Positions 184-29,608 of a stretch of DNA of 32,000 bases are shown piece by piece. A program made the position numbers and the translations under genes. Below the pieces are notes generated by a model. The model saw only the letters and a list, made by a program, of their open reading frames with translations, had not been told where the DNA came from and ran no database searches. Origin of the DNA: Xanthomonas campestris pv. campestris str. ATCC 33913 (GTDB lineage Bacteria > Pseudomonadota > Gammaproteobacteria > Xanthomonadales > Xanthomonadaceae); the NCBI RefSeq assembly GCF_000007145.1, contig NC_003902.1, positions 1,357,436 to 1,389,435 on the forward strand, written 5' to 3'. The stretch's first letter is position 1. Each line of letters begins with the position of its first letter.

Positions 184-969
184 TCAGCAAGCTGCGGTGC
201 GATTGACCGTATTGGACGTCATGCCCTTGGAAGGTGCCGCCGTGTTGCCGTCCGACAGCGCCAGTTCGAGCTTGTAGCCATGCGAATACACGGTGCGAAT
301 GCGCACCGCGCCACTGTGGTTGCACAGCCGCAGTTTCTTGCGCAGCTTGTAGATGTGCTGTTCCATGGTGCGGTCGGTGAACTCGGTATGGCTACCCCAG
401 ACCGCCTTGGCCAGCTGGCAGCGGCGGAAGCACACGCCCGGATTCGAAAACAGCAGCCAGGCGATGGAGAACTCGCGCGCGGTCAAGGCAATCGCGGTCT
501 CGTGCAGGTACACCGTGTTCTTCTCGCGGAGCAGCTGATACGGGCCCACCTTGATCTGCTGGGCCTGGATGCAGGTGGCTGCCATCGGCCAAATGGCGAG
601 CGATGCGCGCACATGCAACTCGTGTGAGTTGACTGGCAGGCTGAGCACTTCGTGGGCGCCGGCGCGATACCAGGCCAGCAAGTCGTCGGGGCACTCGAAA
701 CGGCCCAGCACAATCAGTGGGGTGGGGTGACCACTGTGGCAGCGCTGCCAGGCGAGCAGGGAACTGTCGTCCGATGCCACGCAATGGGCATCGAAAACCA
801 GAAGCTCGCACGGCGAGTGGCGCAGGCAGCGCAGCAATTCGAGTTCGTCTGAAAAGATGGTGACCTCTGGGACCAGAGTCGCCAGGCTGGCGTTGATCTG
901 TGATGCCAGCCGCGCGTCCTGCGTCAGTACGAATGCCGATCCTTGGCGGTCATTCGCAGCGGCGTCCAT
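184..969 (-). CDS. hrpG: OmpR/PhoB-family response regulator with degenerate receiver domain; interpreted as HrpG, master regulator of hrp/type III secretion genes
   Basis: ORF 184..984 (-). ATG at 969 is preferred (261 aa); GTG at 984 is possible. C-terminal winged-helix signature: GPYQLLREKNTVYLHETAIALTAREFSIAWLL...TMEQHIYKLRKKL...RTVYSHGYKL. N-terminal REC-like fold with Asp in ELLVFD. It is divergent from an adjacent 476-aa AraC-type gene, which is the Xanthomonas hrpG/hrpX arrangement. With the ATG-969 numbering, Glu44 (DELELL) and Asp60 fall where I recall the HrpG* E44K site and the phospho-acceptor (from memory, not searched). Confidence 0.7.
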   Translation of the reverse strand: MDAAANDRQGSAFVLTQDARLASQINASLATLVPEVTIFSDELELLRCLRHSPCELLVFDAHCVASDDSSLLAWQRCHSGHPTPLIVLGRFECPDDLLAWYRAGAHEVLSLPVNSHELHVRASLAIWPMAATCIQAQQIKVGPYQLLREKNTVYLHETAIALTAREFSIAWLLFSNPGVCFRRCQLAKAVWGSHTEFTDRTMEQHIYKLRKKLRLCNHSGAVRIRTVYSHGYKLELALSDGNTAAPSKGMTSNTVNRTAAC

Positions 970-1102
970 CACTCGCGCGCCCACGCCGGCGGTACGGGCG
1001 CAGCCCAGACCATGGAACTGAGCACAACAGGCTTACTAAAGGTATCCAGGCACATAGCCATATCACTCGACCGCTTCGGGGGGATCTGACCTGCGTCAGA
1101 CG

Positions 1103-1118: not shown

Positions 1119-1794
1119 GCGGAGGCGAAAAGTTTCGTTGCCTAGCGCGAATTCCGATCAGCGGAGTCATCCGCTTTAGCGGGTGGTCAGTTAGCCGCAA
1201 CACAGCTCTTACTCTCTAGTTATGCAATCGTCGTCTGACGCATAGGGCTGGTTGGGGCGTTTTAATTCGGTCGGGTTGCTGCACACAAAACCCCATGCTG
1301 GAGCGGCGGCATGCCAACGTGCAGGTGTAGACCAAGGTATAGAGATTTTGCTGACTCCCTGCGCGAGAAAGAATATCTCGAGGGACTTGACTATCGCGCC
1401 GCTGAACAAAATGCTCTTGTAATTACAGGTGGACCGGCGAATCGCCGGAAAACAGCGTGTGCCCTCATTGCACTGGATTAACGGCCATTTGACATTGAGC
1501 GCGAGCGATCGCAGATGTTTAGCGCGCCTTCGCGCATCTGCGTGCCGAACACCGCATCCGTACGCCCACGCATCGTCCTGTGATGCACCGTCAAGATACG
1601 CCGGCGCATCGTCTGGCCTTCGTCGCTATGCAGGTGCGGGATCCACTTCGCAGTTTGCAAGACAGAGTGAGAATTTTTGAATTTCTAGCTGCTGCGAAGT
1701 GAGAAATTCTATTGGATCCGCTGCATACAATCGTTTGCGCCCACCACAACGGCGCCTTTTGTTGTTTTTGCTCCTCCCCTTCAGAGAGCCCGGC

Positions 1795-3225
1795 ATGATC
1801 CTTTCGACCTACTTCGCAGCGATCTCTGCGTTGTCTTACGCAGACCGTCTTCCGATCTATACGAGCAGGATGCTTGTTGGTGCTTGGCCACAGGGTCTGC
1901 AGCACCTCCAGCAACGTCGCGAGGGGCAGGCAGCTCCGGATGGCAGCGACGACGAAGTCGCATTGCTGGGCGCCAGCGCCGATGCCTTGTTGATTCTGGA
2001 GTATCAGGAAGAGGCAGAGGATGCCTATCGGCAGGCGTCCAAGGCGATGCGTGGGCACCAGCGGCAGCTGCGCCTGCTGTCGTGCCGCAACACCGCGTGG
2101 CTGATGTTGAGCCAGCGCCGGCTGAGTGCAGCGCTCAATTGCTTTGCGCAACTGGCCATGGACCGCGATACCCCGGCGGTGCTGTGTGGCGAGAGCCTGC
2201 TCGGCAAGGCGCTGACCCACTTCCACCTGGGCCAGAGCACCCTGGCACTGCAGACGCTGGAACGCGCGCAAGAGGTGGTTTCCGAGCTGGAGCTCGGTGC
2301 GGCGGACTGGACGCGTGTGGTCGGCGCGCTGCGTCTGGACCTGATCGCCCAGCTGCGGATCCGGCGCGGCGAGCGCATGAGCGACCACGTGTTCTGGCAG
2401 GCCACGCTGCGCCAGGAAGATGCCGCGCATACCTTCGAGGCCAGCGAGCTGCGTGCCTGCATCGCCGATCTGTCCGAGAGCATGCCGGTGCTGGCGCAAC
2501 GCATGCGCCATGTGCGCAATCTGCTGCGCATTGCTGGTGGAGACATCTTCGGCTTCGACGCGCAGATCGATGCCTTGCCCGCAGCGGCCACCGGTTGCCC
2601 GCCATGCGCGCGGCAGGATGCGCAAGTGGAGCTGGCGCTGGCCGCATTGGCGGTTGGGCGTGCGGACCTGGCCGAACGCGCGCTGGCCGGTGCCGGGCGC
2701 CATCACGCGCCGCGCTGGAACCTGGAGTTCGAGTATTGCCAGGCCAAGATCAGCCAGGCACTGGGACGTGCCGAGCAAGCCTTGCTGCTCTACAACCGCT
2801 ACGCCCTGGGGGCTGTGCAATGCCTGCGCAGCGAGGTCCAGGCGCCGCGGTTGCTGGAAAGCGGCACACCGGCGCATGTCAGCGATGACATTTCCGCCCG
2901 CCTGCCGGCCAAGTACCGGCGTGCCTACGCGTACATGATCACCAATGCCCATCGATCGGACCTGTCGATCAACGAGGTCGCCGCGCAGATCGGGGTGACC
3001 GGGCGCGCGCTGCAGCAGGCCTTCAAATCAGCGACCGGCTTGTCGCCGACCCAGGTGCTGCGCCGGTATCGCATGCAGGGCATCCGCGATGAACTGTTGG
3101 CCGATGGCGGTTGTGGCAGCGTGCTGCAGGCGGCGAGCCGCTGGGGTGTGGGCAGTCGCTCGGCGCTGGCCAAGGGCTATCGCCAGCATTTCAATGAAGC
3201 GCCGATGGAAACCCTGCAACGCTAA
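1795..3225 (+). CDS. hrpX: AraC-family transcriptional activator with large N-terminal helical domain; interpreted as HrpX
   Basis: ORF 1699..3225. The in-frame ATG at 1795 (MILSTYFAA...) gives 476 aa, the length I recall for Xanthomonas HrpX. C-terminal AraC double HTH: DLSINEVAAQIGVTGRALQQAFKSATGLSPTQVLRRYRMQGIRDEL...SRSALAKGYRQHFNEAPMETL. Divergent from the OmpR-type gene at 184..969. Confidence 0.72.
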   Translation: MILSTYFAAISALSYADRLPIYTSRMLVGAWPQGLQHLQQRREGQAAPDGSDDEVALLGASADALLILEYQEEAEDAYRQASKAMRGHQRQLRLLSCRNTAWLMLSQRRLSAALNCFAQLAMDRDTPAVLCGESLLGKALTHFHLGQSTLALQTLERAQEVVSELELGAADWTRVVGALRLDLIAQLRIRRGERMSDHVFWQATLRQEDAAHTFEASELRACIADLSESMPVLAQRMRHVRNLLRIAGGDIFGFDAQIDALPAAATGCPPCARQDAQVELALAALAVGRADLAERALAGAGRHHAPRWNLEFEYCQAKISQALGRAEQALLLYNRYALGAVQCLRSEVQAPRLLESGTPAHVSDDISARLPAKYRRAYAYMITNAHRSDLSINEVAAQIGVTGRALQQAFKSATGLSPTQVLRRYRMQGIRDELLADGGCGSVLQAASRWGVGSRSALAKGYRQHFNEAPMETLQR

Positions 3226-3230
3226 GCAGG

Positions 3231-3260
3231 CCGCTGCCCTGCAGCAATGCAGGGCAGCGG
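3231..3260 (+). terminator. Perfect 13-bp stem with GCAA tetraloop, 6 nt after the hrpX stop; no U-tract
   Basis: CCGCTGCCCTGCA (3231..3243), loop GCAA, TGCAGGGCAGCGG (3248..3260). The arms are exact reverse complements. The following sequence TGAGCGGG is not T-rich, so intrinsic termination is uncertain. Confidence 0.45.
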
Positions 3261-3627
3261 TGAGCGGGTAGAGGGGTGGCACGCGGCGGCGATGCGCCCC
3301 TGTTCGCGCTGTGCCGGACGTTGGCTCAGCCGGCGTTTATGCGCAGCGCGCTTGCACGAAGCAGGCGTGACGTTTGCAGTTTTTGCCGGCAAATCCGGCC
3401 GTTTTGCAGCGCTTTGCAAGAGTGTGCTGCCGGGCCTTGAATACCCGGCACCTATGTAACGATGGATGTAACGCTGGGATCTGTTGCCTGAGAAGGCCGG
3501 CCTGTGCCGCCGGCGCGGCGCGTACGTGCGCGGTCCGTGGCTTGCGGCTATCCTTTCCGGCTCGCATTGCCACCCAGGCAGGCGTGTCCGAGGATGGACG
3601 CGGCCGCCAAGGACACGACGACCGATC

Positions 3628-5502
3628 ATGCAAGATCCCATCAATGAGGCGACGGACGCCTCGCAGATCCGCCGCGCAGGCGTCGATCTCAACGGGCTCA
3701 TGTCCGTACTCAGCAAGCATTTGTATTCGACGCCGGTGGTCGCGTTGCGCGAGCTGGTGCAGAACGCGCACGACTCGATCCTGCGCCGGCGCCTGGAGCA
3801 GCCGGAGTGGGGTGGTGCGTCGCTGATCGAAGTGCATGGCGATCCCGCCCAGGGCACCGTGCGCATCATCGATACCGGCGCCGGGCTGACCCAACAGGAG
3901 ATCCACGACTATCTGGCCACCGTGGGCGTGGGCTACACCCGCGGCCTGCGTCAGGGCGGGCATGAAGACAGCGGCCTGATCGGCATGTTCGGGCTGGGCT
4001 TCCTGTCGGCATTCGTCCTGGCACGGCGGGTCACCGTGCGCACCACCTCGTATCAGACGCCGACGCTGGGCCATTGCTATGTGTCCAGCAATGCCGAGCA
4101 ATACACGGTGAGCCCGATTGCCGCACGTGCCCAGGTCGGCACCGAGGTGGTGCTGGAGCTGCATCCGAATTATCTGCCGTTGGCCCAGGAGGGCCGCCTG
4201 CGCGAGATCCTGTCGCAGTACTGCGCGCTGTTGCGCGAGCCGATCCAGATTGGCCGCGATGCACAGCCGATCAACCCGGAGCCGCCGCCGTGGCGCATGG
4301 TCGATGCGGTGCCGTTGCATCCGGTGCAGGCCTGGCGCCGCCAGCGCGAATTTGCCGCGCGCTTCGAGCGTAACTTCGAGCCGTTGTGCTGCATGCCGGT
4401 GCGCAGCGACGAAGGCAGCGATGCAGTCGGTCTGTTGTGGGTGCAGGATGGGGCGACCTACGGCACCAGCGATAACCGCAATCTGTCGGTTTTTTTGCGT
4501 GGCATGTTGCTCCATGACAACGCGCGCGAATTGCTGCCGCCATGGGCCGGTTTCATCGGTGGGGTGATCGAATCCAACCGCTTGACGCCCACTGCCAGCC
4601 GCGAAGATTTGCAGCGCGATGCGGTGTACAGCGCGGTGCAACACGCACTCTCCGAAGCCTTGGTGCAAGGTCTGGCCGAGGTCGCGCGTCAGCAGCCGGA
4701 GGCATGGCGCCGCATCCTGCTCCGCCACAACGAAGCGCTGCTGGGCGCGGCGTTGTGCGACGAGCGCCTGTTCGAATTGTTGATGGAACACGTGCGCGTT
4801 CCCACCTCGCAAGGCGATCTGCCGGCGCAGCAACTGCCGGCGCATGGTGCGGTGCACGTAATCCTGGACAGCGACGCCGGCTTCGAGGAAATGCTGTTCC
4901 GCGCCATGGGCGTGCCGGTGGCCTATGGCAACCGCTATGCGGTGGTGCCGTTCCTGCGCCGCTGGGCGCAGGCCAAGGGCGTGCGGCTGGTCGAACTGGG
5001 CACCGAACAAGGCAACCGGCAGCTGTTCCATCTGGACAGCCTGCCTGCCGACGAACTGGCCTGGCTGGAGCAGCACCTGGGCGATGGCGAGGCCCTGGTG
5101 CCGGCGCGTTTCAGCCCGGAGGAATTGCCGCTGGTGGTGGTGCCCGACCGTGAGGCGGAGCTCAAGCGGCGTCTGGAACAGGACGAGAACGACAAGCGCG
5201 TCTCGACCGCGGCCTTGCGCCTGGCGCGGCAGTTCACCGCGCGCATCGAATCGCAACAGACCCAGCGGCTGTATCTGAATCTGGACACCCCTGCCTTGCA
5301 GTCGCTGCTGGCTGCGTACCGCGCGGGCAACCCGCAGGCGGCCGTCGCCGCGCGTTTGCTGCGTTCGCTCAAGGTGATTGTTGCTGCACAGGGCCGCACC
5401 CAGCAGACGCCAGGCGCGGCCGAAGCGGAGGCGGGTGTGTCTGCGTTGAATCGGGCCTTCGGCGATTTTGCCGCGGCTGTCACCCACTTGCTGGCGCGCT
5501 GA
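3628..5502 (+). CDS. Hsp90-family (HtpG-like) GHKL ATPase paralogue, 624 aa
   Basis: ORF 3484..5502; ATG at 3628 (MQDPINE...) is preferred. Bergerat-fold motifs occur in Hsp90 order: VVALRELVQNAHDSILRR (cf. Hsp90 ELISNASDA), VRIIDTGAGLTQQEIHDYLATVG (cf. DNGIGMT), GLIGMFGLGFLSAFVLA (cf. GQFGVGFYSAF). The remainder is not recognisably canonical HtpG by eye. No MEEVD-type C-terminus. Confidence 0.8.
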   Translation: MQDPINEATDASQIRRAGVDLNGLMSVLSKHLYSTPVVALRELVQNAHDSILRRRLEQPEWGGASLIEVHGDPAQGTVRIIDTGAGLTQQEIHDYLATVGVGYTRGLRQGGHEDSGLIGMFGLGFLSAFVLARRVTVRTTSYQTPTLGHCYVSSNAEQYTVSPIAARAQVGTEVVLELHPNYLPLAQEGRLREILSQYCALLREPIQIGRDAQPINPEPPPWRMVDAVPLHPVQAWRRQREFAARFERNFEPLCCMPVRSDEGSDAVGLLWVQDGATYGTSDNRNLSVFLRGMLLHDNARELLPPWAGFIGGVIESNRLTPTASREDLQRDAVYSAVQHALSEALVQGLAEVARQQPEAWRRILLRHNEALLGAALCDERLFELLMEHVRVPTSQGDLPAQQLPAHGAVHVILDSDAGFEEMLFRAMGVPVAYGNRYAVVPFLRRWAQAKGVRLVELGTEQGNRQLFHLDSLPADELAWLEQHLGDGEALVPARFSPEELPLVVVPDREAELKRRLEQDENDKRVSTAALRLARQFTARIESQQTQRLYLNLDTPALQSLLAAYRAGNPQAAVAARLLRSLKVIVAAQGRTQQTPGAAEAEAGVSALNRAFGDFAAAVTHLLAR

Positions 5503-5524
5503 GCGCCGGATCAAAGGACGCGTC

Positions 5525-7849
5525 ATGGAAATCTGGAACTGGGTGGAAAAACTGCAGGACGATCTGGGCGAAGCCGGGCAGCCGCAAAATGCGCAGCTGC
5601 TGACACGCCTGACCGATCACATCTGCGATCTGCAGATCGAGCGTGCCGAGGCGCTATTGCCGGAGGCGCGCGCGCTGGGCAAGACCCTGGCCAACCCGTG
5701 GCTGGAAGTGTTCGTCGGGCATTGGGAAATGCGCAACCGGGTGGGCAACCTGTGCGAGGGCGAACGTGCGTTGGGCGATGCGGTGTCGCTGTTCGAACGC
5801 GCGCACCGCCCCGATGCGGTGGAATGCCCGCAGTCGGTGTGTGTGACCCAGGACCTGGCGGCGTGTTACGCCAACATCGATGGCCCGGGCTGGGTGCAAG
5901 AGCGCATCGAGGTATGCGAAGAAACCCTGGCGCGCATCGACCCCAGCTGGTCGTGCTACCAGTGCCTGAGCTGCGAAAAGGCCGACGCCTTGCTCGACGA
6001 TGGCCGCGGCGATGCGGCGCTGGCGTATCTGGAGCAGCAGTCGGGAACCATCCTGGCGCACGGCGGCGAGATCTACGACGGCGTGCCGGACATGCGTATC
6101 TCGATCCTGCTGGCGCTGGGCCGCGCTGCCGAGGCGCTGGAACTGGTCGAGCAGCGCGAGCGCGAGGCTGCGCGCGAAGGCGCGGAGTGGGCCAACTGCA
6201 GCCAGCCGCGTCAGTTGCAGAAAACCCGCGCGCTGGCCTTGTTGGGGCGCGACGAAGAGGCCATGCAGGCCCTGCTGCTGTGGCGCGATGTGGCGCCGCG
6301 CTATCGCCTGCACTGGTTGCGTGCGGTGGCGGTGCTGGTGTCGCGCGCGCCCGAGCGCAACAGCTGGGACCTGGGCAGCCGCGTGCAGACCATGCTGGAC
6401 CACTACGCGCAGGTGGGTGCGCACCGCATCTTGATCGAAGCAGCGGAGCTTGCGATCGGGATGGCCTTGCAGCGCGGCGCGGTGTGGACCGCGCGCCGGC
6501 ACCTGGCGCTGGCCCGCGCGCATGTGCCCAGGCTGCGGCTGGACCGTGGCGCCACCGAGTTGCTGAACACCCTGGCCGCACGCATCGATGCGGCGCCGGT
6601 GAGCGCGCCGCCGCCGGCGCCCGCCGACCAGTTGCTGGCGTGGTTGTCCGCGCAGGACCAGGAGTCCGCGCGCAATCCGGAACAGGAAGCGCAGTGGTTG
6701 CTGCAGGCAGTGGCCGAGCGGCCCGACGATGCCGAACTGGTGGACACCACCGCATCGGCCTTGAGCGCATGCGCAGCCGATGAAGACGCGATCGCCTTGC
6801 TGTGGCAGTTCGTGCAGCGGCACGCCGATCGCGAAACCAGCCCCACGTTCCGGCTGATGAATCTCTTGCTCGGCCGTGGCGACGAGGCCAGCGTGTGCCG
6901 TCTGGCGCAGCTGTATCGTGCCCAGGTGCCGGTGGCGGCGTTGTGGTGCGAAGCGCAGCTGGCACAGCGGCTGGCCGACTGGCCCGCGCTGGAGCAGGCC
7001 TGCGCCGCATTGCTGGCGCTCTCGCCGAGCTCGCACGGTGCGCGCGGGCTGTTGGCGCGCATGTACCTCAACACCGGGCGTTTCGCCGAGTCGGCCGACG
7101 TCTATCGGCAGCTGACTGAGCTACTGGAAGAACCACGCTCGGCATATTGGGACCACATGACCGCCGCCAGTGCGGCGCAGGACTGGGACGCAGTGCGTGC
7201 CTGCGCGCAGGCAATCGGCATGGAGTTGAGCAGCACCAGTGGCGTGGTCGAGGAGACCTGGGGCTGGGTGATCATCCGCTGCATCGAAGACGGCGAAGTG
7301 GCCGAGTATTACGCGCGCCGCACCGGGCCGGTGACCGCACGCATCGTTGAAAATGCGCCGTCGCAGCGCCGCCAGCACGTGGGCGACTGGGTGGTGTTCG
7401 ACGCGGAGCTGGTGTATCCGCCGCCGGAGGATGAAGCCGAACGCGCACGCTTCGTGCCGACCTATCCGCAGGTGCATGTGCTGCAGGCCGGCGGCTACGG
7501 CAACAGCTGGCTGGTGGATGGCGTGCATCCGGGCGAGCCGGCGATCGACGCCTTGCGCAAGGACATTGAAGCGCGTGGGTGGACGCTGTGGGTGCACAGC
7601 CGCGACGACTATCGCCTGATCGATCCGGACAATGCAGATGCCTTCGATGCGGAAGACCCGCAGTCCGGATTGCCGGGCGTGCTGTTCACCGTCGCCCTGC
7701 CGGAGGCAGTGCCACCGCTGGAACTGCACCGCGCGCTGGTGATGGCGACGGCCGGCTGGCCGCACCGCATGTGCTGGATGCGGCTTGCCGAAGCCTGCGA
7801 CCAGGACACCACCCCGCATATGCAGGCGATCGAGCGCTACGGTCTGTAA
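5525..7849 (+). CDS. Uncharacterised 774-aa protein: Ala/Leu-rich helical-repeat (TPR-like) body, N-proximal 7-Cys cluster, distinct C-terminal domain of about 200 aa
   Basis: ORF 5468..7849. The ATG at 5525 is preceded by AAAGGA and lies 22 nt after the upstream stop. Coding is supported by length and by the following terminator. I recognise no family signature. The TPR-like call rests only on repeated helix-turn-helix-looking A/L/R/E-rich segments. Confidence 0.75.
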   Translation: MEIWNWVEKLQDDLGEAGQPQNAQLLTRLTDHICDLQIERAEALLPEARALGKTLANPWLEVFVGHWEMRNRVGNLCEGERALGDAVSLFERAHRPDAVECPQSVCVTQDLAACYANIDGPGWVQERIEVCEETLARIDPSWSCYQCLSCEKADALLDDGRGDAALAYLEQQSGTILAHGGEIYDGVPDMRISILLALGRAAEALELVEQREREAAREGAEWANCSQPRQLQKTRALALLGRDEEAMQALLLWRDVAPRYRLHWLRAVAVLVSRAPERNSWDLGSRVQTMLDHYAQVGAHRILIEAAELAIGMALQRGAVWTARRHLALARAHVPRLRLDRGATELLNTLAARIDAAPVSAPPPAPADQLLAWLSAQDQESARNPEQEAQWLLQAVAERPDDAELVDTTASALSACAADEDAIALLWQFVQRHADRETSPTFRLMNLLLGRGDEASVCRLAQLYRAQVPVAALWCEAQLAQRLADWPALEQACAALLALSPSSHGARGLLARMYLNTGRFAESADVYRQLTELLEEPRSAYWDHMTAASAAQDWDAVRACAQAIGMELSSTSGVVEETWGWVIIRCIEDGEVAEYYARRTGPVTARIVENAPSQRRQHVGDWVVFDAELVYPPPEDEAERARFVPTYPQVHVLQAGGYGNSWLVDGVHPGEPAIDALRKDIEARGWTLWVHSRDDYRLIDPDNADAFDAEDPQSGLPGVLFTVALPEAVPPLELHRALVMATAGWPHRMCWMRLAEACDQDTTPHMQAIERYGL

Positions 7850-7863
7850 GACCGCCAGTGGTT

Positions 7864-7900
7864 ACGGCGCGCTGCGGTTCTCGTGGCGCGCCGTTTTTTT
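7864..7900 (+). terminator. Rho-independent terminator after the 774-aa gene
   Basis: ACGGCGCGC (7864..7872), 13-nt loop, GCGCGCCGT (7886..7894), followed by a T7 run to 7900. It starts 15 nt after the stop at 7849. Confidence 0.65.
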
Positions 7901-8215
7901 AGTAGGGGAGCGCAATGCGGGCGCTGATGTCTTTAGCCCGGTAAGCGCGATGACCCTGGAATTTTTTTGACGCTCAAGCTGGCGTCATTGAATCTGCAGA
8001 AACAGCGGAATGTTCGCGTGGCTTGGGCGCGCACGCGAAATGGCGGCGTAACGCTTGCGTGTGATCTCGCAGCGACTGGCACGACATTTCTCGCGCTTAT
8101 GCCACGCGTTCTGCATCCGGCCAAACGTCCAGCAAGACTGGCGTGCACGATGCGCCGCGCCAGTCTGCGACCGTGTGCGTTGCATTTTCAGCAAGGCACA
8201 CCTTCAAGAGCTGAC

Positions 8216-9316
8216 TCAGCTGCGCTTGCCGTAACGTGCCAGCCAATGTGCGTAGGACGGCGGCAGCACCCGCGATGGGCGTTCTTCGCCCAGCGCCAAC
8301 GCGGCGTGATACGGCCAGTGCGGGTTGGCCAGATGTGCGCGGCCGACCATCACCAGCTCCATCTGCCCGGCCGCAACCACGCGGTCTGCTTCCAGCGGAT
8401 CGTCGATGTTCCAGGACGAGGCCACCGGCAGCGCGGCCTCGCGGCTCACGCGTTCGGCGATCGGTGCCAGCAGGGCAGGCCCCCACGGAATGACAGCGTT
8501 GGGCGTGCTGAAGCCCATGCTGACGTTGAGCAGATCCAGCCCATCGCGCTTGAAATTGCGGGTCAGTGCGATGGCTTCCTGCAGGGTTTCCTCGTCGCGT
8601 CCGTCGAACTCGATCACGCCGAAACGTGCGGTCAGCGGCAAGTGTTCCGGCCATACCGCGCGCACCGCCTGCAATGTTTCCAACAGAAAACGCGCGCGGT
8701 TTTCGGCGCTGCCGCCATAAGCGTCCTGGCGCTGGTTGGCATGTACGGAGAAGAAGCTCTGTGCCAGATAGCCATGAGCGAAGTGCAGCTCCAGCCACTT
8801 GAAGCCGGCAGCGAGGGCGCGCTTGGCGGCGGCGACAAAATCACCGCGCACGCGGGCGATATCGTCCAGGTCCATTGCACGCGGCAGCTTGGGCAGATTC
8901 GCACCGAACGCGACCGCTGACGGCGACAGCGTGTCCCAGCCGCGCGCATCGCCGTCGGCGATATGGTCGTCGCCTTCCCACGGCAGATTGGCGCTGGCCT
9001 TGCGCCCGGCATGGCCGATCTGTATACCGGGCACGGCGCCCGCGGCGCTGATGGAGGCGGCGATGCCTGCGAGTCCTTCGGCCTGGGCGTCATTCCACAG
9101 GCCCAGGCAGCCGGGGGTGATGCGGCCTTCCGGCGACACGCCGGTGGCCTCGACGATCACCAGCCCGGCACCACCGCGCGCCATGCTGGCGTAGTGCACC
9201 TGATGCCAGTCGTTGGTGAAACCGTCGGTGGCGGTGTATTGGCACATCGGTGGGATCGCGATGCGATTACGGAGCGAGACATCCTTGAGCTGATACGGCG
9301 AAAACAGCGATGACAT
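8216..9316 (-). CDS. NADH:flavin oxidoreductase, Old Yellow Enzyme family (YqjM-like class)
   Basis: 366-aa ORF. N-terminus LKDVSLRNRIAIPPMCQYTA..., then HYASMARGGAGLVIVEATGVSPEGRI, GIQIGHAGRKAS, LELHFAHGYLAQSFFS and DAYGGSAENRARFLLE are typical OYE TIM-barrel motifs. Confidence 0.85.
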   Translation of the reverse strand: MSSLFSPYQLKDVSLRNRIAIPPMCQYTATDGFTNDWHQVHYASMARGGAGLVIVEATGVSPEGRITPGCLGLWNDAQAEGLAGIAASISAAGAVPGIQIGHAGRKASANLPWEGDDHIADGDARGWDTLSPSAVAFGANLPKLPRAMDLDDIARVRGDFVAAAKRALAAGFKWLELHFAHGYLAQSFFSVHANQRQDAYGGSAENRARFLLETLQAVRAVWPEHLPLTARFGVIEFDGRDEETLQEAIALTRNFKRDGLDLLNVSMGFSTPNAVIPWGPALLAPIAERVSREAALPVASSWNIDDPLEADRVVAAGQMELVMVGRAHLANPHWPYHAALALGEERPSRVLPPSYAHWLARYGKRS

Positions 9317-9675: not shown

Positions 9676-9787
9676 CGAATCCCGAATCCCGAATCCCGAA
9701 TCCCGAATCCCGAATCCCGAATCGCGAATCGCGAATCGCGAATCGCGAATCGCGAATCCCCATTCCCCATTCCCCATTCCCCATTCC
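9676..9787. repeat. Compound heptanucleotide tandem repeat: (CGAATCC)x6, (CGAATCG)x5, (CGAATCC)x1, (CCATTCC)x4
   Basis: Counted base by base: 16 contiguous 7-bp units with no interruptions. Intergenic, about 210 nt upstream of rsbR (9997) and about 360 nt upstream of the divergent OYE gene (9316). Confidence 0.95.
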
Positions 9788-9996
9788 CGCAGCCGTGGCC
9801 CGGCGCACGTTCAGCGCTCCGGAGCAATGTCAAACTGGCCTGGAGCGATCCAAATGACCGCTACAGGTTCGTGTCTGGTTGGCAAACCTGAATTGCTTTA
9901 ATCTGCAGCGCTTCGGCGTGGGGGCGCCGCGCCAACTCGGGCGCAGTCCAGCTCGCATGCCACGTCATCGTTTACTACTACTCGACGGGTGATCTC

Positions 9997-10839
9997 ATGG
10001 TGGCATTGCAGCAGCGCACGATCGATGCGATTCGTGGCCAGGAAGGCGGCTTGTTGTCGGCATGGCTGGGCTCCAGCCTGACCGCCGATGCGCGCATTTC
10101 GCACAAGGATGCACAGGCGCAGGGCGCCGACTTTCTGCGCTTGCTGGCGGCTTCGTTGAAGGACGGCGGCAGCAGCCTGGACAGTGCCGAATGGAGCGAA
10201 GTGCGCCGGTTCCTGGAGAACCTCTCGCGTGACCGCGCCACCCGTGGTTTCGATTCGCAGGAAACCGCCAACTTCCTCTTCTCGCTCAAGCGCGCGCTGT
10301 TTGAACTGGTGCAGCGCGAATACGCCGATACGCCGGAAGAACTCGGCCACCAGCTGTGGGCGCTGTCCGAGCTGATGGACGCGCTGGGCCTGCACACCAT
10401 CAAGGCGTTCCAGAAAACCCGCGAAGACATCATTGCGCGCCAGCAGGAAGAGATGCTGGAGCTGTCCACCCCGGTGGTGAAGTTGTGGGAAGGCGTGCTG
10501 GCGCTGCCGATGATCGGCACGCTGGATTCGCAGCGCACCCAGGTGGTGATGGAATCGCTGCTGCAGCGCATTGTCGATACCGGTTCGGAAATCGCCATCA
10601 TCGACATCACCGGCGTGCCCACCGTGGACACCCTGGTTGCCCAGCACCTGCTCAAGACCGTTACCGCCATCCGCCTGATGGGCGCCGATGCGATCATCAG
10701 CGGTGTGCGCCCACAGATTGCACAGACCATCGTGCATCTGGGCCTGGACCTGCAGGGCATCGTGACCAAGGCCAACCTGGCCGATGCGTTGGCGTTGGCG
10801 CTCAAGCGCACCGGCGTGACCGTGAGCAAGGCGGGCTGA
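9997..10839 (+). CDS. rsbR: Stressosome scaffold/sensor RsbR: N-terminal non-haem globin-like sensor plus C-terminal STAS
   Basis: 280 aa. STAS region: ELSTPVVKLWEGVLALPMIGTLDSQRTQVVMESLLQRIVDTGSEIAIIDITGVPTVDTLVAQHLLKTV...GADAIISGVRPQIAQTIVHLG. This is the classic RsbR pattern, followed by RsbS and RsbT. Confidence 0.85.
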   Translation: MVALQQRTIDAIRGQEGGLLSAWLGSSLTADARISHKDAQAQGADFLRLLAASLKDGGSSLDSAEWSEVRRFLENLSRDRATRGFDSQETANFLFSLKRALFELVQREYADTPEELGHQLWALSELMDALGLHTIKAFQKTREDIIARQQEEMLELSTPVVKLWEGVLALPMIGTLDSQRTQVVMESLLQRIVDTGSEIAIIDITGVPTVDTLVAQHLLKTVTAIRLMGADAIISGVRPQIAQTIVHLGLDLQGIVTKANLADALALALKRTGVTVSKAG

Positions 10840-10840
10840 C

Positions 10841-11203
10841 ATGGAGCGCATCCCGATCCTGCGGATGGGTGATCTGTTGCTGGTCACCATCCAGGTGGAC
10901 ATGCACGACCAGCTGGCGCTGACCCTGCAGGAAGACCTGTCGGAAAAGATCAGCGCCACCTCTGCGCGCGGCGTGTTGATCGACATCTCCGCGTTGGACA
11001 TCGTCGACTCCTTCATCGGCCGCATGATCAGCACCATCTCCGGGCTGGCGGCGATCATGGATGCCAAGACCGTGGTGGTGGGCATGCAGCCGGCGGTGGC
11101 GATCACGCTGGTTGAGCTGGGGCTGACCCTGCCCACCGTGCGCACCGCCTTGAATGTCGAGCGCGGCATGCGGCTGCTACAGCAACCTGTGCTCGATCCA
11201 TGA
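10841..11203 (+). CDS. rsbS: Stressosome STAS protein RsbS
   Basis: 120 aa, single STAS domain: IPILRMGDLLLVTIQVDMHDQ...GVLIDISALDIVDSFIGRM...VVVGMQPAVAITLVELG. The conserved phosphorylatable Ser lies in the DIVDSF context. It starts 1 nt after the rsbR stop. Confidence 0.85.
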   Translation: MERIPILRMGDLLLVTIQVDMHDQLALTLQEDLSEKISATSARGVLIDISALDIVDSFIGRMISTISGLAAIMDAKTVVVGMQPAVAITLVELGLTLPTVRTALNVERGMRLLQQPVLDP

Positions 11204-11601
11204 GCACGCCGGCTGGCTCGCAACCGGTGCGTACCGAGCAGGACGTGGTGATGGCGCGGCAGACCGTGCGCAAGCTGGTGGTGCAATGCGGCCTGCGCCT
11301 GGTCGACCAGACCAAGCTGGTCACCGCGGCCAGCGAACTGGCGCGCAATACCGTGATCTACGGTGGCGGCGGCGACATGGACTGGGCGCTGGTGGAGAGC
11401 GGCATCCGCAAGGGCGTGCAGCTGACCTTCCGCGACGAAGGCCCGGGCATCCCCAATCTGGACCTGGCGCTGACCGACGGCTGGACCTCCGGCAGCGGCC
11501 TGGGCCTGGGCCTGTCCGGCAGCCGTCGGCTAGTGGACGATTTCGTGCTGGACAGCGCGCCCGGCAAGGGCACGCGGATCACCATCACCAAATGGAAGTG
11601 A
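11200..11601 (+). CDS. rsbT: Stressosome switch Ser/Thr kinase RsbT (GHKL)
   Basis: 133 aa: LVTAASELARNTVIYGGGG...FRDEGPGIPNLDLAL...GSGLGLGLSGSRRLVDDF...GKGTRITITKW. ATGA start/stop overlap with rsbS (11200..11203). Confidence 0.85.
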   Translation: MSTPAGSQPVRTEQDVVMARQTVRKLVVQCGLRLVDQTKLVTAASELARNTVIYGGGGDMDWALVESGIRKGVQLTFRDEGPGIPNLDLALTDGWTSGSGLGLGLSGSRRLVDDFVLDSAPGKGTRITITKWK

Positions 11602-12602
11602 CGTTTGCAGGTGCGCCGACCCGGTCGATTCGTCTAGACGACGCAAGCCAGGTCGGGCAGGCACGCCGCGAAGCGGTGGCCCTGGCGCAGGCATTGGCGC
11701 TGGATGAGGCCAGCTGTGGGCGCGTGGCGCTGGTGGCCACCGAGTTGGCCACCAATGTGCTCAAGCATGGGCGTGGCGGCTGCGTGCAGCTGTCGCCGGT
11801 GGCCGGGCGCGCCGGCGTTGGCGTGGAGTTGTGCACGCTCGACAACGGCCCCGGATTTGCGCTTTCGCAGTGCCTGCGCGATGGCTATTCCACCTCCGGC
11901 ACGCCGGGCACCGGGCTGGGCGCGATCCACCGCCAGGCGCAGCTGCTGGATGCCTATTCCGATGCGAAGGGCGCCATTGTGGTGGCGCGCGTGTTTGCGC
12001 AGCAAGGCGCTGCCCAGGACCTGGCGTACGGCGCGCTGCGTGTGCCGATCCACAACGAAACCGTGTGCGGCGATGCCTGGCATCTGCAGATCCGCGAGGC
12101 GCGTGCCACGGTAACGGTGATCGACGGGCTTGGCCACGGTGCCGGTGCAGCGGAGGCGGCAGACGCCGGCACCCACGCGGCCGCGGCGGCCACCGGCGAG
12201 CCCGGCGAGCGGGTCACGCGCCTGCATGCCGCCATGTCCGGCACGCGTGGCGGCGCGGCAGCGGTGGCGCAGTTCGATAGCCGCAGCGGGCAGGTCCGCT
12301 TTGCCGGCGTGGGCAATATCGCGGCCGCGCTCTGCGACGGCGATGGCGTGCGCGGCATGCCATCGCATCCGGGCATCGTGGGCGTGCAGTTCCGCAAGGC
12401 GCAGCCATTCGATTTTCCACAGGCCACCGGCAAGCTGCTGGTGATGCACAGCGACGGGCTGCAATCGCGCTGGAATCTGCGCGATCATCCGGGTCTGCTG
12501 TCGCGCCATCCGCGCATCATCGCCGCACTGTTGGTGCGCGATCACGACCGCGGCCGCGACGATTGCAGTGTGTTTGTCATGCGCTTGGGAGGCATGTCAT
12601 GA
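11592..12602 (+). CDS. Fused RsbW-like anti-sigma-type kinase domain plus SpoIIE/PP2C phosphatase domain
   Basis: Reading frame of ORF 11154..12602. The ATG at 11592 (or GTG at 11598) overlaps the rsbT stop. N-terminal half: VALVATELATNVLKHGRGG...LDNGPGF...GTGLGAIHRQA (HATPase_c). C-terminal half: CGDAWH...VIDGLGHGAGAAEAA...LLVMHSDGL...RDHDRGRDDCSVFV (PP2C/SpoIIE pattern). Confidence 0.75.
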   Translation: MEVTFAGAPTRSIRLDDASQVGQARREAVALAQALALDEASCGRVALVATELATNVLKHGRGGCVQLSPVAGRAGVGVELCTLDNGPGFALSQCLRDGYSTSGTPGTGLGAIHRQAQLLDAYSDAKGAIVVARVFAQQGAAQDLAYGALRVPIHNETVCGDAWHLQIREARATVTVIDGLGHGAGAAEAADAGTHAAAAATGEPGERVTRLHAAMSGTRGGAAAVAQFDSRSGQVRFAGVGNIAAALCDGDGVRGMPSHPGIVGVQFRKAQPFDFPQATGKLLVMHSDGLQSRWNLRDHPGLLSRHPRIIAALLVRDHDRGRDDCSVFVMRLGGMS

Positions 12603-13477
12603 GTCACGCAAATGAGGTTCCCGCCATCGACGCGATGGCTGAACTGGAGAGCTTGCGCCAGCAGAATCAGGCGCTGCGCGAGGAACTGGACGAAACCAAC
12701 CAGGGCGTGCTGGCGCTGTATGCCGAGCTGGATCAGCAGGCTGAGCAATTGCGCGACGTGTCCGAGCTCAAGAGCCGGTTTCTGTCGTACATGAGCCACG
12801 AATTCCGCACGCCACTGGGCTCGATCCTGAGCATTACCCGGCTGCTGGAAGACGGCATGGATGGCCCGCTCAACGCCGAGCAGCTCAAGCAGGTGCGCTT
12901 TGTCAGCGCGTCCACGCGCGAGCTCAGCGAAATGGTGGACGACCTGCTGGACCTGGCCAAGATCGAAGCCGGGCGGGTCACCATCTCGCCGGGCTGGTTC
13001 GATCTGATGGATCTGTTTGCGGCCTTGCGCGGCATGTTCCGCCCGCTCACCGACGCCAACCGCACCACCTTGATCTTCGAAGATCCGCCGGTGTTGCCGA
13101 TGCTCTACACCGACGACAAGAAGCTGGCGCAGATCCTGCGCAACTTCATTTCCAACGCGCTCAAGTTCACCCCGCAAGGCCATGTGCGCGTGTTCGCGCA
13201 ACTGCAGGGCGACACCCACGTGCGCTTCAGCGTGCAGGACACCGGCATTGGGATCCCGGCCGAACTGCACGACGCGCTGTTCGAGGATTTCGTGCAGGTG
13301 GATTCGCCACTGCAGAAGCGCCTCACCGGCACCGGCCTGGGCCTGTCGATCTGCAAGCGCTTTGCCGAGTTGCTGGGCGGCACCGTGGGCATCAACAGCG
13401 TGGTCGGGCAGGGCTCGGAATTTTTCGTGGTATTGCCGGTGACGCTGGCGCCGCAGCAGGAGGATGGTCTTGCCTAG
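12599..13477 (+). CDS. Soluble histidine kinase with no sensor or TM domain (coiled coil + HisKA + HATPase_c)
   Basis: The ATG at 12599 forms an ATGA overlap with the upstream stop. About 45 aa of coiled coil (ELESLRQQNQALREELDETNQGVLALYAELDQQAEQL) is followed by the H-box SRFLSYMSHEFRTPL, N-box LRNFISNALKFT, and G-boxes DTGIGI / GTGLGLSI. Confidence 0.85.
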   Translation: MSHANEVPAIDAMAELESLRQQNQALREELDETNQGVLALYAELDQQAEQLRDVSELKSRFLSYMSHEFRTPLGSILSITRLLEDGMDGPLNAEQLKQVRFVSASTRELSEMVDDLLDLAKIEAGRVTISPGWFDLMDLFAALRGMFRPLTDANRTTLIFEDPPVLPMLYTDDKKLAQILRNFISNALKFTPQGHVRVFAQLQGDTHVRFSVQDTGIGIPAELHDALFEDFVQVDSPLQKRLTGTGLGLSICKRFAELLGGTVGINSVVGQGSEFFVVLPVTLAPQQEDGLA

Positions 13478-15404
13478 CAGTCATCGGATTCTGGTAGTGG
13501 ACGACAACGCGGTCACCCGCTACTCGGTGCGGCGCGTGCTCGAACACCACCAGTTCGTGGTCGAAGAAGCCGGGACCGGTGGCGAGGGGCTGGTGCGCCT
13601 GGCTGCCGAGGCATTTGCCGCCGTGGTGCTGGACGTCAACCTGCCGGACATGAGCGGCTTCGACATCGTGCGCACGCTGCGCGCCGAGCCGCGTACCGCG
13701 CTGCTGCCGGTGGTGCACGTCTCGGCGGCCTCGATTGCCACCGGTGACATGATCACCGGCCTGGACGCCGGCGCCGATGCCTACCTGATCCATCCGGTCG
13801 ACCCCAACGTGCTGGTCGCCACCTTGCGCACGCTGCTGCGCGCGCGCAATGCCGAAGAAGCGCTGCGGCTCAGCGAGGCGCGCTTTCGCGAAATCTTCGA
13901 GCACATCGGCGCGCCGATCGCGGTGGTCGATGCGCAGCTGCACACGCAGGAGGCCAATGCGGCGTTTCAGCGGCTGATCGGCAGCGCCACCCCATGCGAA
14001 GCGATCAACGTGCCCGGCCTGGACCAGTGCGCCACCGTGCAGGCCTTGACCGCCGCACTGGGCCGGCGCGAGCGCTGGAGCGGGACCTTGTCGATCCTGC
14101 GCGATGGCGCGGTGCGCGAGACCGAATGGCGGGTGTCGCCGTACCGCGAACCGGACCTGGGCCTGCTGTTTGTCGAAGACGTCACCGAGCAACGCCTGCG
14201 CGAGCGCGAGCAACGCCAGGAACTGGATACCGCCACCTCCGAGCTGGCGCATCAGATTGCCGAGCGCCAACGCACCGAAATCCAGCTGCTGCAGGCGCAA
14301 AAGATGGAAGCGCTGGGCAAGCTCACCGGCGGCATCGCGCACGACTTCAACAACCTGCTCACCAGCATCATTTCCGGCCTGGACATGATCCAGCTGGCGG
14401 TGGAATCCAACCGCATCGAACGCGTGCCACGGCTGGCGGAAATCGCCACCGGCTCGGCGCATCGCGCTGCTGCGCTGACCCAGCGCATGCTGGCGTTTGC
14501 ACGCAAGCAGTCGCTGGATGCGCAGCCGTTCGACGTCAATGCGCGGGTGCGCTCGCTGGAAGACATGCTGCGCCGTTCGATCGGCGAAAACATCGCACTG
14601 GAACTGCAGCTGGCGGAGGCGCCACTGGTGGCCATCGCCGATGCCAATCAACTGGAAAACGTGGTGCTCAACCTGGTCATCAACGCACGCGATGCGCTGC
14701 AGGGCCACGGCACCATCCGCATCCAGAGCGCGCCGCACACCGCCTACAACGACCCGGAGCTGGAGGACGGCGACTATGTCGCGGTGAACGTGATCGACGA
14801 CGGCAGCGGCATCGATCCGGCGATCCTGAGCCAGGTGTTCGAGCCGTTCTTCACCACCAAACCGATCGGCGAGGGCACCGGGCTGGGCTTGTCGATGACC
14901 TACGGGTTTGCGCGCCAGTCCGGCGGCACCGCACGCATCACCAGCACGCTGGGTAGCGGCACCACGGTGGCCTTGTTGTTGCCGCGCGGGCTGACCGTGG
15001 GCGAGGCATTGCCACCGCCGCCGCCGAATGCGCCGCGTGGGCGCTCGCAGCGCATCCTGCTGGTGGACGACACCGATGTGGTGCGCATGATGGTGAGCGA
15101 GGTGCTCAGCGATGCCGGGTACCACGTGATCGAGGCCGAAAACGCCGATGGCGCGCTGGCGCAGCTGCGCGCCGATGCACAGATCGACATGGTGGTGTCC
15201 GATGTCGGCCTGCCCGGCATGAACGGGCGCGACATGGCCGATGTGGCGCGTGATCTGCGCCCCGGGTTGCCGATCCTGTTCATCACCGGCTACGCCGAAA
15301 ATGCGGCCACCCGGCAGGAATTCCTCGCCGAAGGCATGGCGTTGCTGCCCAAGCCCTTCAGCCTCAACGACCTGCTCAATACCGTCAGCCGCATGCTGGG
15401 CTGA
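13464..15404 (+). CDS. Hybrid REC-PAS-HisKA-HATPase_c-REC sensor kinase/response regulator
   Basis: 646 aa. The ATG at 13464 is preceded by GCAGGAGG and overlaps the upstream gene by 14 nt. N-terminal REC: RILVVDDN...VVLDVNLPDMSGFD...YLIHPV. H-box: LGKLTGGIAHDFNNLL. ATPase: VINARDAL...DDGSGI...GTGLGLSM. C-terminal REC: RILLVDD...MVVSDVGLPGMNG...LLPKPF. Confidence 0.88.
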   Translation: MVLPSSHRILVVDDNAVTRYSVRRVLEHHQFVVEEAGTGGEGLVRLAAEAFAAVVLDVNLPDMSGFDIVRTLRAEPRTALLPVVHVSAASIATGDMITGLDAGADAYLIHPVDPNVLVATLRTLLRARNAEEALRLSEARFREIFEHIGAPIAVVDAQLHTQEANAAFQRLIGSATPCEAINVPGLDQCATVQALTAALGRRERWSGTLSILRDGAVRETEWRVSPYREPDLGLLFVEDVTEQRLREREQRQELDTATSELAHQIAERQRTEIQLLQAQKMEALGKLTGGIAHDFNNLLTSIISGLDMIQLAVESNRIERVPRLAEIATGSAHRAAALTQRMLAFARKQSLDAQPFDVNARVRSLEDMLRRSIGENIALELQLAEAPLVAIADANQLENVVLNLVINARDALQGHGTIRIQSAPHTAYNDPELEDGDYVAVNVIDDGSGIDPAILSQVFEPFFTTKPIGEGTGLGLSMTYGFARQSGGTARITSTLGSGTTVALLLPRGLTVGEALPPPPPNAPRGRSQRILLVDDTDVVRMMVSEVLSDAGYHVIEAENADGALAQLRADAQIDMVVSDVGLPGMNGRDMADVARDLRPGLPILFITGYAENAATRQEFLAEGMALLPKPFSLNDLLNTVSRMLG

Positions 15405-29450: not shown

Positions 29451-29608
29451 GTCGCCTTACTGCTCAGAGCAGCTATCAAAACGACTGCGCAGCCGCCAGG
29501 CGGGCGCGGCCGGTGCTCGGAATCGGCATGTACCCACGTACACTCCGGTTCCTCCGCGCCGTCCGCACCCACCTGACGGCTGCTCGCTACGTTTTGTTAG
29601 CCGCTCTT

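Follow-up and report, generated by a model that had tools for sequence, protein, structure and literature searches.

A divergent Hsp90-family ATPase gene linked to a TPR-protein gene downstream of hrpX in Xanthomonas campestris: a possible two-component bacterial chaperone module

This work concerns two adjacent genes, here called A and B, located directly after hrpX in Xanthomonas campestris pv. campestris str. ATCC 33913. They were studied within a stretch of 32,000 nucleotides of contig NC_003902.1 (positions 1,357,436 to 1,389,435), further referred to as the window, and coordinates below are those of the window unless another locus is named. Gene A encodes a non-canonical ATPase of the Hsp90 family, gene B a large helical-repeat protein. 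Both hrpG (184..984, reverse strand) and hrpX (1699..3225, forward strand) lie upstream of the pair. The elements of the two-gene unit are as follows:

3230..3261, forward strand: hairpin after the hrpX stop codon, with a perfect 14-bp stem and without a T-run
3628..5502, forward strand: gene A, starting with ATG, 624 amino acids (aa), non-canonical Hsp90-family ATPase
5513..5518, forward strand: ribosome-binding site AAAGGA of gene B, inside the 22-nt spacer, with the ATG 6 nt further on
5525..7849, forward strand: gene B, starting with ATG, 774 aa, predicted partner protein outside every curated family
7864..7900, forward strand: intrinsic terminator closing the unit, with a stem at 7864..7894 (14 pairs, 10 of them GC) followed by T7

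Both open reading frames (ORFs), the spacer of 22 nt separating them on the same strand and the AAAGGA site were found where a preliminary description of this DNA had placed them. Its statement that the pair is bracketed by a strong hairpin (3231..3260) and a canonical terminator was confirmed as well. The arms of the hairpin (3231-3243 and 3248-3260) are 13 nt long and 100% complementary, and the segment 3230-3261 folds with a free energy of -35.2 kcal/mol (z -6.4), no shuffled sequence folding as well. This hairpin probably ends or insulates hrpX transcription and constitutes the upstream edge of the unit, inside which no terminator of comparable strength was found.

The G+C content of the sequence is 66% and long antisense ORFs are common, e.g. 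3337..5526 (729 aa) and 5523..7010 (495 aa), both on the reverse strand. Unlike the two forward-strand ORFs, those lying antisense to A and B have no homologue or domain support and are typical artefacts of high-GC DNA, where ORF length alone is no evidence. A and B themselves are real genes and not chance ORFs, because each has hundreds of full-length homologues; the closest ones come from X. campestris, with 98-99% identity. By inspection, no signal peptide was seen in either protein.

The central observation is the linkage of the two genes across distant genomes. A pattern scan covering one genome per species detected B in 184 of 185,579 species, and adjacency was counted in the best 80 of these 184 loci together with four loci fetched individually. 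A homologue of A was located directly upstream of B and on the same strand in all of them (84/84), with a gap of 21-194 nt. These loci belong to Xanthomonas, Stenotrophomonas and other Lysobacteraceae, to Pseudomonas (P. aeruginosa/paraeruginosa and others), to Rhodocyclaceae and to Budvicia; within the best 80 kept, the pair was present in 29 loci of Xanthomonas and in almost all of the ~40 of Stenotrophomonas. Five further A-B loci were identified beyond this set in Acinetobacter, Lysobacter, Desulfovibrio (A 58% and B 37% identical, 13-nt gap), a metagenomic lineage (B 34% identical, 2-nt gap) and a Pseudomonas with a shortened B. Across phyla, the identity of A is 58-78%, and the genes flanking the pair vary from genus to genus. 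Pairwise identities of A and of B in 22 genomes are correlated with r=0.96, B diverging approximately 1.5 times faster, and therefore both genes were inherited and, where transferred, moved as one unit. The proposal that an Hsp90-like ATPase is hard-wired to a helical-repeat protein was thus borne out by adjacency in every A-linked locus examined, in unrelated neighbourhoods, and their co-occurrence extends beyond the original lineage to Gamma- and Betaproteobacteria, Desulfovibrio and the metagenomic lineage.

Some individual loci deserve a comment. The pair adjoins guaB-guaA in Budvicia (locus L001, 10401..15167), together with xseA, and in P. syringae (locus L090, 3633..6803); this may go back to an old insertion site common to both or be fortuitous. 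Locus L056, labelled Nocardiopsis yanglingensis, has A and B 75% and 62% identical to the query, correspondingly, i.e. in the range of Stenotrophomonas maltophilia loci, and is probably a contaminated or mislabelled record rather than an actinobacterial occurrence. As for mobility of the pair, the plasmid collection gave no evidence of it, its four matches being apparently pieces of chromosomes or whole chromosomes deposited as plasmids.

Protein A can be divided into three parts:

3682..4272, forward strand: N-terminal GHKL/Bergerat ATP-binding domain, approximately residues 19-215
4273..5082, forward strand: Hsp90 middle domain, approximately residues 216-485, with invariant S324-R325-E326
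5083..5499, forward strand: C-terminal part of ~140 residues, lying where HtpG has its dimerisation domain

The motifs ELVQNAHDS, IIDTGAGLT and GMFGLGFLSAF, by which A had initially been recognised, are indeed present in this order at residues 42, 80 and 119. They align to HtpG as RELVQNAHDS (E42, N46), IIDTGAGLT (D82, G84, G86) and GMFGLGF (119-125). According to the homologue alignment, E42 is the catalytic Glu, N46 the Mg-binding Asn and D82 the adenine-binding residue; invariant in 24 homologues of A are E42, N46, D49, D82, G84, G86, the stretch G119-F125 (GMFGLGF) and T172. The segment TASRED (S324-R325-E326) of the middle domain, likewise invariant in the 24 homologues, is aligned with the catalytic-Arg motif LNVSRE of HtpG. 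With the ATP-binding and middle-domain residues being invariant, ATP hydrolysis should be intact, and A is predicted from its catalytic residues to be a competent enzyme.

A has Pfam matches to HSP90 and HATPase_c_3, and its best PDB matches are E. coli HtpG and mitochondrial TRAP1. Its best NCBIfam model, and the closest curated match altogether, is NF010683 'HSP90 family protein' (2.5e-81, residues 16-566), representing non-canonical HtpG paralogues, with HtpG following at 2e-53. The score of A against the NF010683/PRK14083 equivalog is 274 bits at a cut-off of 455 bits, which places A outside that equivalog, and against the HtpG equivalog NF003555 it is 182 bits at a cut-off of 371 bits. 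In a comparison with hhalign, A 22-485 was aligned to HtpG 14-473 with a probability of 99.7 and ~27% identity, the N-terminal and middle domains being collinear over their whole length; the E. coli HtpG sequence used for this agrees with the PDB alignment over its first 376 residues, the part confirmed. Residues 486-624 of A showed no similarity to the HtpG dimerisation domain by profile search or by hhalign with the same HtpG sequence; they are conserved within the A family, and their position and length match those of the HtpG C-terminal domain. An EEVD-like C-terminal tail is absent from A, the tails of the 24 homologues varying in sequence and length. The earlier impression that A is not obviously canonical HtpG beyond the ATPase domain is therefore correct for the last ~140 residues and incorrect for the middle domain. 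With its score under the HtpG cut-off, A is considered to be a diverged paralogue within the Hsp90 family rather than the orthologue of HtpG, in agreement with the preliminary description.

Canonical HtpG (group A; E. coli, PDB 2iop) and protein A are thus both of 624 aa and share collinear N-terminal and middle domains, the ATP motifs and the catalytic Arg. They differ in that the C-terminal ~140 residues of A are unalignable and in that HtpG has no dedicated operon partner, whereas A has B directly downstream. HtpG proteins have been divided into groups A, B and C, with gammaproteobacterial sequences in A and C (Chen et al. 2006, PMC1525184), and protein A probably belongs to group C. Press et al. 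2013 (PMC3708813) expressly excluded hsp90B and hsp90C from consideration, and in the literature found by us there was no mention of a conserved partner gene of the non-canonical paralogues. No canonical htpG is present within the 32-kb window. The pair is found also in Pseudomonas and Enterobacterales, and these carry canonical htpG. The genes XCV1316-XCV1334 presumably start directly after hrpX. X. albilineans was reported to have lost this ancestral cluster (PMC2810307), and the same species has a functional HtpG, according to the passage of PMC11764788 that cites Vivien 2005.

The Hsp90 character of A bears on a rival reading, raised in MORC-like form in the preliminary description, under which the pair would serve in conflict (anti-phage defence) or signalling, a GHKL-NTPase acting with a TPR sensor or effector in the manner of MORC/paraMORC or STAND-like systems. 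The patchy distribution across phyla, the compact two-gene cassette in varying neighbourhoods and the combination of TPR arrays with an unassigned C-terminal domain in B (see below) would all suit such a module, and MORC/paraMORC systems similarly consist of a GHKL ATPase with a large partner encoded next to it. However, the alignment of A with Hsp90 extends over the middle domain, and the catalytic Arg of the SRE motif is preserved, i.e. A is a true Hsp90 and not a MORC. PADLOC-DB 2.0 returned for A only TmtA over the GHKL fold, at E=0.013-0.029, which is to be regarded as noise, and nothing for B. The divergence of A across phyla is slow for a defence gene, and the pair occurs in the Xanthomonas and Stenotrophomonas loci counted above. 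Its neighbours are housekeeping genes and not defence islands. Nuclease, TIR or protease signatures were not seen, nor was any real carriage by plasmids or phages. On balance, we regard a role in conflict as quite improbable.

Gene B was modelled with AlphaFold2 on an alignment of 35 sequences (mean predicted local distance difference test, pLDDT, 92.3; predicted template modelling score, pTM, 0.77). In the model, 29 helices are predicted over residues 1-563 and a beta-rich domain over residues 581-774, and four parts can be discerned: an N-terminal alpha-solenoid, a proline-rich linker, a TPR domain and a C-terminal alpha/beta domain. The corresponding features of gene B are:

5525..6592, forward strand: N-terminal alpha-solenoid, residues 1-356, the part kept in a short Pseudomonas form
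5825..5965, forward strand: Cys motif C101-PQS[VI]-C106 ... C114 ... C144-x2-C147, kept in all A-linked homologues
6665..7213, forward strand: TPR domain, residues 381-563, paired helices in the AlphaFold2 model
7265..7846, forward strand: C-terminal alpha/beta domain, residues 581-774, made up of a beta-rich and, after it, a beta-alpha subdomain

In Pfam, NCBIfam and PADLOC, no family was matched by B above threshold, with weak TPR matches at residues 386-541. The TPR signal was consistent across the family, Pfam TPR_19 being found in 23 of 35 members (best E 6e-9) and TPR_20 in 15 of 35, and B contains a true TPR domain. Residues 381-464 are weakly similar to the TPR of the chaperedoxin CnoX/YbbN (PDB 7ywy, E=1.9e-4); B has no thioredoxin domain, and this similarity is a lead only that may be generic. 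A Foldseek search with full-length B returned only generic TPR superhelices with template modelling (TM) scores below 0.3, the Tom71-Hsp82 structure (3fp2) among them. The profile of the N-terminal half matched, among PDB sequences, only designer pentatricopeptide repeats, and that of the C-terminal domain had no matches there.

The C-terminal domain modelled alone reached a pLDDT of 94. The best PDB match to its fold found by Foldseek was 5ueb, a Tudor-like, DUF2314-related hypothetical protein, with E=5e-4, TM 0.31/0.40 and a root-mean-square deviation of 7.6; this was rejected as too weak, and the matches next to it were weak ferredoxin-like ones. Against BFVD nothing was found below E=0.08. 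Conservation of the domain is good, its invariant positions including polar and aromatic residues, and the protein ends with the conserved IERYGL-COOH. The opinion that B belongs to no characterised family has therefore withstood curated-family, PDB and Foldseek searches. It should be noted that the family itself is large: an exhaustive hidden Markov model search returned, at E<1e-30, 453 clusters (50% identity), almost all of which have lengths of 730-790 aa. Its members are labelled in databases as 'hypothetical', 'TPR repeat protein' or 'bacterial transcriptional activator domain-containing protein', the last label being misleading.

Conservation of B is maximal not in the TPR domain but at residues 41-160 (mean majority frequency 0.78, rising to 0.89 at residues 101-120), where H66, W67, C101-P-Q, C106, D110, D119, G122, C144 and C147 are invariant. 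The cluster of seven Cys residues noticed previously was confirmed here, with all seven between residues 101 and 150 (101, 106, 114, 131, 144, 147 and 150). C101 is invariant in every alignment, and C106, C144 and C147 are invariant among A-linked homologues; in the wider alignment of B, C106 is kept in >90% of sequences, and C144 and C147 are missing in two actinobacterial homologues without an adjacent A. In the AlphaFold2 model, the Cys residues are predicted to lie at the N-termini of two helices, 103-135 (with its loop) and 143-158, i.e. the four conserved ones adopt a CxnC...CxxC arrangement at helix N-termini. The spacing C-x4-C...C-x2-C is typical of Cys4 metal sites and, taken together with the model, points to a putative Cys4 zinc or redox site. 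Hsp33 is a zinc redox-switch chaperone, and the Cys4-type motif of B recalls such redox-switched chaperones, with a different Cys spacing.

An informative departure from the general architecture was found in a clade of fluorescent pseudomonads, including P. poae, P. capsici and P. syringae pv. maculicola. There, A is followed by a protein of 359-383 aa corresponding to the N-terminal half of B (residues 1-~360) and represented by ~10 clusters with 75-99% identity. Two of the loci are:

L085, 7885..9003: short B
L090, 2273..3367: short B

In P. syringae pv. maculicola, an in-frame stop splits the short B into ORFs of 244 and 118 aa, which suggests a pseudogene. In this clade, A thus comes with just the N-terminal half of B: the Cys-bearing solenoid is the smallest partner to be retained, and these organisms can dispense with the TPR and C-terminal domains.

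Parallels for an Hsp90-type ATPase functionally tied to a TPR or helical-repeat protein are the eukaryotic Hop/Sti1, Sgt1, Tom70/71 and Unc45, the tie seen here being a genomic one. Current reviews and primary papers confine Hsp90 co-chaperones to eukaryotes (PMC9478669), bacterial Hsp90 being described as acting without them. In contrast to the eukaryotic TPR co-chaperones and their Hsp90, the likeness of folds is that of generic solenoids, and the N-terminal Cys-solenoid and the C-terminal domain of B have no counterpart among those co-chaperones. With no conserved C-terminal tail in A, a eukaryotic-type EEVD/TPR-clamp mechanism is not supported.

Our favoured reading, to which we assign a probability of about 0.45, i.e. 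slightly below even odds, is that the pair constitutes an obligate, dedicated two-component chaperone module of the Hsp90 type, with B as the partner of the ATPase A. A would work as an ATP-driven clamp, and B as its dedicated co-chaperone, adaptor or regulator. B would most likely dock on A through the highly conserved N-terminal Cys-solenoid, and its TPR and C-terminal domains may recruit clients or other chaperones. The module could then be seen as an ancient accessory unit, co-inherited and occasionally transferred. A narrower version of this proposal, put forward tentatively and in our estimate rather unlikely, is that B is the first dedicated bacterial Hsp90 co-chaperone or adaptor, in which a Cys4 (zinc or redox-switch) solenoid would do the binding in place of an EEVD/TPR clamp and which would either deliver a specific class of clients or couple A to DnaK/GroEL. 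The physical contact between A and B, the metal binding, the direction of their functional relationship and the physiological role of the pair are what we infer from genomic context, alignments and models.

Several points weigh against this module. Three actinobacterial homologues of B, ~30% identical and of full length, have no A within 6-8 kb (n=3), which shows that B also occurs without A beside it. Docking of the eukaryotic kind does not apply, as A offers a TPR clamp no conserved C-terminal peptide. B could turn out to be a client or an effector instead of a helper, should its C-terminal domain be active by itself. Nor was a physiological role indicated by a third conserved gene, a regulon or a phenotype. 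It should be added that two of the three actinobacterial orphans have lost most of the Cys motif, which, at n=3, is consistent with this region being tied to A.

Two of these orphan loci share a further trait. In Allonocardiopsis and Streptosporangiales (L088, 3385..5753, and L093, 1686..3633), B is accompanied by a divergently transcribed ORF of 113-115 aa that belongs to no family, with a DUF6315 gene nearby; this ORF may be a different partner of B in Actinobacteria.

The possibility that B is a dedicated client of A, a large and hard-to-fold multi-domain protein with an activity of its own, perhaps in the C-terminal domain or at the Cys site, draws on part of the same evidence; A would then serve to fold, hold or activate B. 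Strict synteny and co-inheritance fit it equally, the C-terminal domain is conserved in its polar and aromatic residues with a fold unmatched, B evolves faster than A, and homologues exist without A next to them. It is less easily reconciled with the short Pseudomonas form, which has dropped the TPR and C-terminal domains and yet stays with A, the solenoid being retained, and with the lack of any catalytic family for B in Pfam, NCBIfam, the PDB sequence search and Foldseek. We consider the client explanation unlikely.

The position of the pair next to hrpX had raised the question of virulence-linked regulation, and membership in the HrpG/HrpX regulon was considered accordingly. In its favour, the pair lies immediately downstream of hrpX and on the same strand in all 28 hrpX-bearing Xanthomonas loci. 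These are at the same time the only ones among 94 loci with hrpG/hrpX beside the pair (28/94, 0 in other genera), and the pair is kept without nearby hrpG/hrpX in Stenotrophomonas, Pseudomonas, Acinetobacter, Budvicia, Rhodocyclaceae and Desulfovibrio. A strong hairpin stands between hrpX and A. A scan of 3226..3627 for the plant-inducible promoter (PIP) box (TTCGB-N15-TTCGB), which the preliminary description had advised, returned no site even with one mismatch allowed, and in the window as a whole PIP-box matches are about as frequent as chance predicts (16 observed, 15.1 expected). The virulence link via hrpX was thus not borne out, and we hold regulon membership to be very improbable; the proximity of hrpX in Xanthomonas is best read as a lineage-specific accident of synteny.

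The spacer between hrpX and A contains one further feature:

3525..3627, forward strand: conserved leader before gene A, ~105 nt, nearly invariant in ten Xanthomonas species

The upstream ~300 nt of the spacer are not alignable across the ten species, and the leader presumably holds the promoter or the 5' untranslated region of A. A sigma-70 scan of 3100-8100 returned zero sites, no convincing sigma-32 or sigma-54 consensus was seen by eye in the conserved leader, and Rfam had no match at 3525..3627. The leader was also considered as an RNA thermometer or structured leader; it folds (-53.5 kcal/mol, z -2.06), but RNAalifold gave no compensatory pairs and the candidate was rejected. Its AAGGA is not kept in X. 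melonis or X. cucurbitae. In X. campestris, the upstream spacer has ~175 extra nt. These contain a 12-nt palindrome, TTTGCCGGCAAA, at about 3381-3392 (by eye), and a tandem of two copies of ATGTAACGNTGG at 3454-3477.

Downstream of the pair, a gene for an NADH:flavin oxidoreductase of the old yellow enzyme (OYE) family (8216..9316, reverse strand; Pfam Oxidored_FMN, 7e-58) runs convergently towards the A-B terminator. It was present in 14 of the 28 Xanthomonas loci and in none elsewhere. It is followed by a stressosome-like module (9997..12602, forward strand), syntenic with the pair in Xanthomonas only and composed of RsbR (RsbRD_N + STAS), RsbS (STAS), RsbT (HATPase_c) and a kinase-like HATPase_c_2 + SpoIIE/PP2C protein, and then by a histidine kinase and a hybrid kinase/response regulator (12563..15404). 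As neighbours of the pair, hrpG, hrpX, the OYE reductase and RsbR/S/T are thus confined to Xanthomonas loci. Between the OYE gene and rsbR, the heptanucleotide CGAATCC is repeated 16.3 times with 95% matches (9676..9789), an array that could be a contingency/phase-variable element or a regulatory one. Apart from these, the window contains at 29528..29602 (forward strand) a full-length Rfam match to the Xanthomonas small RNA sX9 (RF02228, 96 bits).

In the literature searched, we found no description of the A-B pair or of a bacterial Hsp90 paralogue with a TPR partner; this class of Hsp90 paralogues is known since 2004-2006 yet uncharacterised, and the B family is unannotated. For Xanthomonas, the present data imply that the proximity of hrpX should not be taken as a sign of virulence function. 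The large orphan family of B, with its 453 clusters, gains a genomic context, and the linked partner gene offers a testable handle on the uncharacterised paralogues, comprising two genes, two proteins, a Cys motif and a natural short form. If B is truly a co-chaperone, it would be the first one for a bacterial Hsp90, working without the EEVD/TPR clamp and contradicting the statement that such proteins are confined to eukaryotes; bacteria would then have evolved Hsp90 machines with partners independently.

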